Origin: Escherichia phage vB_EcoS-UDS3lw
Sequence record: PQ658967.1
Length of the DNA: 44,071 bases
Strand: one strand, 5' to 3'
Within the stretch, counting starts at the first letter, position 1; every line of letters starts with the position of its first letter. Position numbers and translations under genes: made by a program. Of this stretch, positions 26,493 to 28,109 are shown piece after piece. The notes under the pieces were generated by a model that saw only the letters and a list, made by a program, of their open reading frames with translations, was not told where the DNA came from and made no database searches.

Positions 26493-28109
26493 ATGGCAGC
26501 GGGTACTTTATCCGTAACGAATAACAGCAAGGCGGTTGTAGGGGTAGGCACAACGTTTACCGCGTTTAAAGCTGGCGACTTCTTATCGCTGGTAGTGGGG
26601 CAAGTCCCTTACACTGTCGCTATTGCATCCGTAGAAAGCGACACGTCTCTTACGCTGGTGTTACCGTTCGACGGACCAACGGCAACCGGCCTAGCCTGGG
26701 ACGGCGTTAAGCGCGATACCATGTCACTGGCAACGATGGGCGTTACCGTACAGGCACAAAAAGCATTGCGCTTGATGATTGCAGATGAAAACAACTGGCG
26801 TGCGATCTTCGGCGACGCTGAAGAAATCACAGTGACGTTACCTAACGGGCAGGTTATGCAGGGCATGTCATGGGGCTATCTGTCGCAGCTAATGAAGCAG
26901 ATCGACCCTGTGGAGATGCGCAACCTGCAACAACAAGCAGCCGCATCGGAAGCAGCCGCGCAAGGATTTCGCAATGAGGCCGAAGGCTTCAAGACCGAGA
27001 CGGCGGGTATTCGCGACGCCACCAATACCATCAAGACGCAGACGGACCAGATTAAGACGGATACGCAGGCCATCAAGACGCAGACGGACCAGATTAAGAC
27101 GGATACGCAGGCCATCAAGGACCAGACGAACCAAATCAAGACTGATACTGGCGTTATTCGAGATCAGGCCAATACGGCGAAGACGGACGCGCAAGCCGCC
27201 CGCGATGCCGCGCAGGGGTATCGGGATGAAGCCGAAGACTTCAAAAACGCGATCGACCCTACGCAATTCATGAAGAAGTCGCAGAACCTGGCAGACGTCG
27301 CAGATAAATCTGCAGCCCGCGCTAATCTTGGTCTGGGGTCTGTAGCTACGGAGAACACCGTACCCATCGAAAAAGGCGGCACGGCAGCAACAACGGCAGC
27401 GGCGGCACGCGCTAATCTTGGGGTTGGTGATGATAGTTTGGTTAAGTTGGGGGCGCTGCACCTGAATGGCGGCGAGTCAGTAGTGTTAAATGCCTTAGAG
27501 GCAAACTCTACCAGTATATCAAACGCGCTGTATGGGGTAGATAACTGGGTGGGGCAGACAATGCATCGGTGGTATACAGACTGGACACGCGCAGGAATTG
27601 TGCGCGCAGGGGACACCCACTTGTCAGACTACCGCATCCACGTGTGGAAAAATGGTGTCAGTGAGGCTTTATTCCGCTTTATGCCAGACCAAAGGCTGAT
27701 TAGTGGTGCCAGCGGCAACCCTTCGATTAACGAGTTCCAGAAAGCGCCGTTATCAGACCGCGACCTTAAAAAAGAAATCCAATACACTGACGGCGAGGAA
27801 AGCTACAACCGCGTTCGCCAATGGCTTCCGGCAATGTTCAAGTATAAGGAGTCTGACGTACAGAGATACGGCCTTATCGCACAGGATCTGGCAAGGATTG
27901 ACCCAGAATATGTGCACTTGCTGCCGGGTTACGCCATTTATGAGGATGTCAAGGAGGTGGACGAGGAAGGGAACGAGGTAGTAGTAGACCGGAAGGAGAT
28001 CGGGTATACAGACGATGTGCTGTCACTAGATAGTAACGTGCTGTTGATGGATCTGTGTGCCGCCTTCGTTCACCTGATGCGGAAAGTGGAGAAGCTGGAA
28101 GGTAAATAA
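26493..28109 (+). CDS. tail fibre protein with C-terminal S74-like intramolecular chaperone domain
   Basis: Heptad-like IKTQTDQ repeats, ARANLGLG / ARANLGVG motifs, C-terminal SDRDLKKEI motif. Confidence 0.75.
   Translation: MAAGTLSVTNNSKAVVGVGTTFTAFKAGDFLSLVVGQVPYTVAIASVESDTSLTLVLPFDGPTATGLAWDGVKRDTMSLATMGVTVQAQKALRLMIADENNWRAIFGDAEEITVTLPNGQVMQGMSWGYLSQLMKQIDPVEMRNLQQQAAASEAAAQGFRNEAEGFKTETAGIRDATNTIKTQTDQIKTDTQAIKTQTDQIKTDTQAIKDQTNQIKTDTGVIRDQANTAKTDAQAARDAAQGYRDEAEDFKNAIDPTQFMKKSQNLADVADKSAARANLGLGSVATENTVPIEKGGTAATTAAAARANLGVGDDSLVKLGALHLNGGESVVLNALEANSTSISNALYGVDNWVGQTMHRWYTDWTRAGIVRAGDTHLSDYRIHVWKNGVSEALFRFMPDQRLISGASGNPSINEFQKAPLSDRDLKKEIQYTDGEESYNRVRQWLPAMFKYKESDVQRYGLIAQDLARIDPEYVHLLPGYAIYEDVKEVDEEGNEVVVDRKEIGYTDDVLSLDSNVLLMDLCAAFVHLMRKVEKLEGK
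27030..27113 (+). repeat. perfect 42-bp in-frame tandem duplication within tail fibre gene
   Basis: 27030-27071 identical to 27072-27113; encodes IKTQTDQIKTDTQA twice. Confidence 0.9.

Follow-up and report, generated by a model that had tools for sequence, protein, structure and literature searches.

Coiled coils whose size varies through intragenic repeat recombination are known from bacterial surface proteins, namely the streptococcal M proteins and the stalks of the trimeric autotransporter adhesins YadA and BadA. In phages, recombination takes place at motifs of fibre genes, such as the 'His boxes' and 'glycine islands' of T-even gp37/gp38 and the collagen-like repeats in the receptor-binding proteins (RBPs) of Streptococcus thermophilus phages. 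Here, we describe a perfect in-frame 42-bp tandem repeat in the shaft-encoding part of the lateral tail fibre gene of Escherichia phage vB_EcoS-UDS3lw (sequence record PQ658967.1). The whole stretch of DNA analysed, 44,071 nucleotides in length, is referred to below as the window. A megablast search indicated that it is about 93% identical overall to genomes of Dhillonvirus, a group of E. coli siphoviruses (e.g., KS_S9, Over9000, and welsh).

The lateral fibres of other Dhillonviruses, including RuthEpting (Bas85 Gp29), Oekolampad (Bas18), SSL-2009a (orf28), and JL1 (JL1_38), are encoded by the same gene in the same position and show 80–94% identity in the anchor and shaft. Their architecture is also the same: an anchor, an elongated coiled coil, a T5-like tip, and a C-terminal intramolecular chaperone. 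There is no categorical difference between these fibres and that of the window, which combines a shaft allele shared with phage Pandora71 with a tip allele of its own. The L-shaped tail fibre pb1 of phage T5 and the endosialidase-type fibres of phages K1F and phi92 likewise carry a C-terminal S74 domain with a Ser...Lys pair. In fibres of these types, the S74 chaperone is released after the trimer has folded, and a surface polysaccharide is bound as the reversible primary receptor by S74 fibres such as T5 pb1. However, beta-structure or a triple beta-helix predominates in the pb1 shaft and in the endosialidase stalks, whereas the proximal shaft considered here is predicted to be a long alpha-helical heptad array.

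The likeness to the M proteins and to YadA and BadA lies in the tandem DNA repeats encoding heptad coiled coils, in the in-frame gain and loss of units, and in concerted evolution. Those proteins, however, are bacterial, are subject to immune or adhesion selection, and cover large length ranges, whereas here we are dealing with a virion fibre whose length is mostly at one value. The motifs of the T-even and S. thermophilus phages are likewise short repeats that serve as substrates for homologous or illegitimate recombination and give rise to mosaics and indels. They mainly swap receptor-binding modules, while the heptad array alters the length and sequence of a spacer, and the swap point probably lies downstream of it, at a repeat with the NLGLG motif. 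The phenomenon is of a familiar kind, ordinary repeat shuffling, and no new mechanism is involved. The literature searched yielded nothing relevant on the variation of heptads or tandem repeats in the tail fibres of phages, and the dynamics of this array are not described in it. The same applies to heptad-array dynamics in the searched text of PMC8594841 and PMC11990801, and PMC12309495 contains nothing on this fibre protein.

A perfect 42-bp tandem repeat in the fibre gene

The gene and its repeat units are as follows:

26493..28109, + strand: Dhillonvirus lateral tail fibre gene, 538 aa plus stop codon (assigned by open reading frame (ORF), PHROG, tblastn, and synteny)
27030..27071, + strand: copy 1 of the perfect 42-bp unit, aa 180–193, IKTQTDQIKTDTQA
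27072..27113, + strand: copy 2 of the perfect 42-bp unit, aa 194–207, IKTQTDQIKTDTQA
27114..27155, + strand: third 42-bp unit, older and degenerate, IKDQTNQIKTDTGV, 29/42 identical to copy 2

The initial annotation had described positions 27030–27071 and 27072–27113 as a perfect in-frame tandem duplication within a longer run of heptads. A comparison of the window with itself confirmed that the repeat is real: the two copies are identical at 42 of 42 bases, lie in frame 0 starting from codon 180 of the ORF, and belong to a run of 16 heptads, so that IKTQTDQIKTDTQA is encoded twice (aa 180–207). The exact self-match at period 42 extends over 50 nt from position 27028, which gives a perfectly repeated block of 92 nt (27028–27119). 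Tandem Repeats Finder (TRF) reported a repeat with a period of 42 at 27028–27148, with 2.9 copies and 92% matches. Even when up to three mismatches were permitted, the window contained just two occurrences of the 42-mer, and 100 shuffles contained none. Upstream of copy 1, only 22 of 42 nt match. The boundaries of the units fall within an 8-bp microhomology, CCATCAAG, which is present at both ends of the exact block. Exact head-to-tail copies with microhomology at the junction are the pattern by which a duplication produced by slippage or unequal recombination is recognised, and this pattern was found here. Alternative-frame ORFs on either strand were also considered as a cause of the repeat; the overlapping ORFs are mechanical by-products, and this idea found no support.

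In a sequence of the window's length and composition, about 3e-21 exact 42-nt tandem duplications are expected by chance. An old duplication might look the same if purifying selection on the protein had held the copies identical with no recent event in the DNA; the heptad pattern is indeed strongly conserved in the protein, and the 14-aa periodicity is found family-wide. However, all 14 of the 14 codons are identical, synonymous positions included, and the probability of this, with the duplicated protein given, is 8.6e-6 under the phage's own codon usage. In 5000 synonymous-codon resamplings of the whole shaft, the longest match at offset 42 had a mean of 11.8 nt and a maximum of 39 nt, and none of them reached the observed 50 nt. 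In the older units encoding the same residues, about half of the synonymous sites differ (e.g., CAG/CAA, ATT/ATC, and ACG/ACT between QTDQIKT and QTNQIKT), and orthologous units in relatives differ synonymously, too. Preservation of an old duplication by selection alone is very improbable on this evidence. Since the synonymous codons are identical beyond what selection at the protein level alone would explain, both copies appear to descend from a recent common DNA ancestor and to be evolutionarily young.

It might also be supposed that the repeat arose in sequencing or assembly and that the true genome has one unit, as an exact 127-bp tandem duplication elsewhere in the window, at 43697–43951, is a suspected assembly remnant. 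But the identical 92-nt block is present in Pandora71, which was isolated and sequenced independently, and near-identical duplicated versions were found in two metagenome contigs from ENA, L026 and L033. In addition, the 92-nt block is shorter than ordinary short reads, and the gene with both copies has the modal length of the family, 538 aa. Thus, an artefact is hardly credible.

The assignment of the repeat to a tail fibre shaft, also made in the initial annotation, agrees with the match to phrog_1980, the Peptidase_S74 domain, and the helix modelled at aa 139–253. The full-length protein is a member of phrog_1980 'tail fiber protein' (E 6.2e-132, aa 1–536). A tblastn search revealed 82–94% identity at 100% query coverage to the fibre or 'tail tip' genes of BF9, Pandora71, SM_S22, UAE_MI-01, SSL-2009a, and JL1, whereas an exact-sequence look-up of the protein gave no identical entry in the collection searched. 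The gene is called the lateral tail fibre in the consulted portions of the BASEL collection papers (PMC8594841, PMC11990801). The shaft occupies the following region:

26907..27251, + strand: shaft, predicted continuous alpha-helix, aa 139–253, about 16 heptads (AlphaFold2 (AF2) model and heptad pattern)

The AF2 model of the monomer, built from 44 homologues, contains one uninterrupted helix of 115 residues at aa 139–253, with a predicted local distance difference test score (pLDDT) of 89–95 over aa 171–240; the duplicated residues 180–207 are located within the best-predicted part of this helix. Sixteen consecutive heptads can be traced at aa 141–253, with A/T mostly at one core position and I/F/L mostly three residues on. 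Read along the heptads in order, the residues at position 2 are M A A A T T T T T T T T A A A A; those at position 5 are L S F F I I I I I I I I A A Y F. The periodicity is uninterrupted, with apolar or small residues at positions a and d, as in a coiled coil. The homologous fibre of Bas85 was predicted to have an elongated N-terminal coiled coil, according to the available text of PMC11990801. Because S74-chaperone fibres are known as trimers, the shaft is presumed to be a trimeric coiled coil. A sequence search of the PDB revealed no solved homologue of the coiled-coil segment, and its matches were confined to the NLGLG module and a weak one at the N-terminus. With the textbook helix rise of about 0.148 nm per residue, the helix would be about 17 nm long, 14 residues (two heptads) about 2.1 nm, and one heptad about 1 nm. 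The duplicated segment acts not as a switch but as a spacer, setting how far the distal tip stands from the N-terminal domain anchored in the virion; by analogy with related fibres, the tip would bind a surface glycan (O-antigen).

Shaft length and duplicates among relatives

As a measure of shaft length, we took the spacing from DPVE, a landmark where the helix starts, to NL[AS][DG][VL], a second landmark just past the helix. It could be measured in 92 of the 120 cluster-representative proteins, and the other 28, in which one landmark is missing, were excluded. The window has a spacing of 127 aa, as do 70 of the 92 homologues; this is the modal value and corresponds to 16 heptads. In the other 22 it differs, and all length variants of the 92 homologues are multiples of 7 aa, from −12 to +1 heptads, with an intact ORF in each. 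The deviations from the modal length, and that of phage CHD5UKE2, are as follows:

−84 aa: 1 cluster representative
−42 aa: 1 cluster representative
−21 aa: 2 cluster representatives
−14 aa: 5 cluster representatives
−7 aa: 12 cluster representatives
+7 aa: 1 cluster representative
+21 aa: phage CHD5UKE2, with a 63-bp near-perfect duplication

Natural variants of the shaft range from 4 to 19 heptads. As the protein of the window has the family's modal length and its shaft the usual 16 heptads, the duplicate adds no net length. Because the shaft length is modal, the event would be either a length-neutral conversion or a duplication that offset an earlier 42-bp deletion.

When the genes were aligned with MAFFT, it was found that two metagenomic loci, L031 (P0021) and L032 (P0036), are shorter by exactly 42 bp at the site of the repeat. 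The gap has GCCACCAATA on one flank and CCATCAAG or TAATCAAG on the other, and the upstream flank of L031 is near-identical to that of the window. Alleles of the BF9 type contain ATNQIKA DTQAIHD where the window has the extra QTDQIKT DTQAIKT. In phage mckay, 12 heptads (252 bp) are lost between two GAGGCCGAAG... units, and locus L030 shows a net loss of 21 bp (one heptad). Alleles of differing copy number are thus present at the same site in relatives. The repeat had also been suggested to be a hotspot for variation in fibre length, with a comparison of copy number among relatives as the check. This comparison was made and bears out the suggestion as far as length variation among relatives is concerned: copy number is not uniform, the array deviates from the modal length by whole heptads in 22 of the 92 representatives, and L031 and L032 are without exactly the 42 bp in question.

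Tandem repeats in surface-recognition genes are a classical substrate of phase variation, and the copy number varies among relatives; both facts could be explained by a programmed variation device, either a contingency locus or a system like a diversity-generating retroelement (DGR), switching the function of the fibre at high frequency. However, the gain or loss of a 42-bp unit (14 codons) within an ORF cannot shift the frame, and all variants are in frame, so the locus does not behave as a contingency locus. The repeat is located in the spacer, outside the receptor-binding tip, and the differences between copies and between alleles are not adenine-specific. No dedicated machinery turned up near the gene in ORF and domain scans, which included no search aimed at DGR components. 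A device of this kind is scarcely plausible here.

Exact matches at an offset were also found in the fibre genes of other lineages. It should be kept in mind that loci L026–L033 were picked for repetitive-looking proteins, and the frequencies in the DNA set are biased upward. The exact offset matches are as follows:

L026: 48 nt, period 42, (QTDQIKTDTQAIKD)x2
L027: 47 nt, period 42, (DTQTIKDQTNQIKT)x2
L030: 50 nt, period 42, net length −1 heptad
SM_S22: 41 nt, period 42
L028: 39 nt, period 42
bov22_1: 37 nt, period 42
CHD5UKE2: 68 nt, period 63
JL1: 27 nt, period 21
All remaining relatives: 8–20 nt

The duplicates in other lineages are independent of that of the window and differ from it in sequence or register. 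The units are identical within one genome, yet orthologous units differ between genomes, and for this reason the array appears to undergo concerted evolution. At the protein level, a complete exact tandem copy is present in 7 of the 92 clusters, and none of these exceeds the modal length.

Origin and history of the repeat

Most probably, the repeat is a young product of repeat-mediated rearrangement in the 21/42-bp array encoding the shaft, and this array evolves in concert. In this history, the way in which the rearrangement came about, the sequence of events, and any selection acting on shaft length are inferred. The repeat may have been generated by replication slippage, unequal homologous recombination, or out-of-register gene conversion. 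Units would be deleted, duplicated, and overwritten again and again in multiples of 21 bp, with the heptad register kept, and alleles would also be exchanged between phages via homologous recombination. The mechanism would account for the rule of multiples of 21, and so would the need to hold the register of the coiled coil. On the simplest path, a 16-heptad array of the BF9 type would first lose 42 bp between two GCCAC(C/T)AAT repeats, which would leave 14 heptads, as in L031 and L032; tandem duplication of 42 bp across the microhomology CCATCAAG would then bring the array back to 16 heptads. A single out-of-register gene conversion could give the same product. The direction might also be the reverse, with alleles of the L031 type derived by the loss of one copy.

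The same 92-nt block is present, base for base, in Pandora71 (PV841870), an isolate from Greek sea water, and the duplication recurs in the metagenomic contig L033, where its copies differ by two substitutions. Since Pandora71 carries the duplicate, it is not private to the genome of the window. When the fibre genes of the window and Pandora71 are compared, 89–90 of 90 nt per bin are identical over gene nt 451–810 and 50–85 of 90 elsewhere, and the level of identity of the whole genes is 89.8%. Because the near-identity is confined to nt 451–810 and the upstream receptor-binding loci differ, the shaft allele appears to have moved between genomes by recombination. The initial annotation had spoken of a recent slippage or recombination event. 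The recent event at the DNA level stands, given the synonymous sites; the duplicate is, however, neither new nor private, as it is found in Pandora71 and L033, and it brings no net lengthening.

The whole shaft allele, duplicate included, may have been imported by homologous recombination from another Dhillonvirus, and the event would then be older and belong to a shared gene pool. The near-identity with Pandora71 in a gene that otherwise differs, next to different RBP loci, speaks for this, as does the presence of the same duplication, with two substitutions, in L033. Mosaicism at the fibre locus is also documented in the consulted portion of PMC8594841. On the other hand, such an import is compatible with the young rearrangement proposed above and merely relocates the place where the duplication occurred. 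Moreover, no difference has yet arisen between the copies; relative to synonymous divergence, either the event or the last round of homogenisation is therefore young. We regard import as a serious possibility, with odds close to even.

Returning to the array itself, most of the young duplicates are found where the array is of modal length or shorter, which points either to conversion without a change in length or to selection that favours about 16 heptads. A further reading, which we put forward tentatively and consider rather doubtful, is that the shaft serves as a molecular ruler and is held at 16 heptads by stabilising selection. Heptads would be lost from and added to the array all the time, and alleles of other lengths (about 1/4 of the clusters) would be transient and would be mended by compensating indels. 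The duplicate of the window would be a two-heptad repair of an earlier two-heptad deletion, the intermediate of which would survive as alleles of the L031/L032 type.

Several points weigh against the interpretation of the repeat as a young product of an array evolving in concert or limit parts of it. The mechanism is known from its products alone, and slippage, unequal crossover, and gene conversion would leave similar footprints. The N-terminal half of the gene is 80–90% identical across the set, and shared ancestry could partly explain the peak at the modal length. The proportion of long exact repeats, 9/29, is an overestimate; less biased values are 4/24 for the DNA loci and 7/92 for the protein clusters. 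As for the structure, the AF2 model is poor outside the helix, the N-terminal domain included (mean pLDDT 62.7), and it was run on the monomer, so that the oligomeric state is outside the model's reach.

Fibre domains, genomic setting, and implications

Besides the shaft, the following parts of the fibre protein can be distinguished:

26493..26906, + strand: N-terminal anchor domain, aa 1–138, conserved across all Dhillonvirus fibre alleles
27315..27428, + strand: second length-variable module, a 30-aa repeat ARxNLGLGSVATENTVPIEKGGTAATTAAx, aa 275–312, one full copy and the start of the next
27429..27752, + strand: distal tip, presumed receptor-binding region, aa ~313–420 (from divergence and AF2 beta-strands)
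27753..28106, + strand: C-terminal S74 intramolecular chaperone domain, aa 421–538 (Pfam PF13884 Peptidase_S74)

Many nucleotide matches of the gene span only query nt 1–~767, and the fibre gene is described in the consulted part of PMC8594841 as conserved among Dhillonviruses only at the far 5' end. A weak PDB sequence match (E 2.4e-4) was found between aa 1–73 (26493–26711) and 23gd, 'Distal tail protein gp20', which hints at a kinship of the anchor domain with the baseplate/Dit N-terminal fold.

The number of copies of the NLGLG module varies among relatives: there are three in JL1 (+60 aa), P0009 and P0011 are longer by 30 aa, and WF5505, mckay, and P0017 are shorter by 30 aa. In the PDB sequence search, the NLGLG motif matched the solved tail-fibre structures 9zd7 (gp92) and 7z47. 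The similarity of many homologues ends at this module (query coverage 52–59%), and it is probably a junction for module swapping. When the window is compared with Pandora71, divergence is greatest in the tip, with 50–70 of 90 nt identical per bin compared with 89–90 of 90 in the shaft. The AF2 model places beta-strands at aa 329–396.

Peptidase_S74 was matched at aa 421–474 with 36.3 bits against a gathering cut-off of 22 (E 7.1e-9), which makes the protein a member of this family. S421, D422, and K426 are invariant in the alignment of 44 homologues; the conserved Ser and Lys are thus five residues apart. We take S421/K426 to be the catalytic dyad, as in the endosialidase chaperone. A T5-like fibre tip is described for Bas85 in the available text of PMC11990801. 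The same text states that the lateral fibres of Dhillonviruses Bas83–85 were shown genetically to be needed for crossing a matching O-antigen layer and to be dispensable on rough hosts. The tip allele of the window differs from those of Bas83–85.

The fibre gene has the following neighbours:

21741–25160, upstream: gpJ-type central fibre (PF24801, PF09327)
25197–26173, + strand: two small proteins of the variable RBP locus, 100 aa (phrog_557) and 224 aa (phrog_425)
26194–26475, − strand: Cor superinfection-exclusion lipoprotein, upstream of the fibre
28136–28711, − strand: conserved 191-aa gene (phrog_10558), downstream of the fibre

The gene order, i.e., gpJ, RBP locus, Cor, fibre, and 191-aa gene, matches that of Pandora71 and other loci, and the synteny of the family is preserved. 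The allele of the RBP locus at 25197–26475 (compared with 4730–5919 of L001) differs from those of Pandora71, L026, L027, L030, L031, and L032, in which this locus encodes a 321-aa DUF6453 protein and a 73-aa lipoprotein on the − strand. Because the RBP loci of the window and Pandora71 differ, one shaft allele can be said to be paired with different terminal-receptor modules.

Other repeats were also noted in the window. The exact 127-bp duplication mentioned above is intergenic and follows the primase/helicase gene (TRF 2.0 copies, 100% matches). The genomes of welsh, Maverick, Opt212, and KarlBarth cover the 672-nt query 43400–44071 with only 542–545 nt, so they have a single copy there. Since 127 is the usual largest k-mer of SPAdes, an artefact is suspected; this repeat may be a circular overlap retained after rotation of the contig rather than a biological feature. 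For the octamer GCGGGACA, 20 occurrences were counted in the window, while 2.1 are expected, and none of 100 shuffles reached 20. It is clustered in two intergenic regions, 15978–16209 and 43684–43900, alongside 78-bp and 12-bp tandem repeats. The clusters look like iterons or regulator binding sites and are possibly part of an origin or a transcription control region. Two imperfect tandem repeats, 37062–37187 (54 bp, 72% matches) and 40223–40390 (87 bp, 82% matches), are located in apparent coding regions of the − strand with many acidic and lysine codons.

The shaft of a common E. coli phage side fibre is a self-homogenising heptad array that changes in whole-heptad steps and is usually kept at one preferred length, which is a finding of modest importance. 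For annotators and assemblers, it means that genuine perfect short tandem repeats are to be expected in these genes and should not be collapsed. In fibre engineering, such as tip swaps onto a Dhillonvirus or T1-like chassis, the heptad array offers a tolerant site at which length can be adjusted with the register preserved. The natural variants of 4–19 heptads are a ready series for asking if adsorption through the O-antigen layer depends on the length of the fibre. If the shaft is indeed a molecular ruler, they would be a natural heptad-stepped series for measuring this effect.

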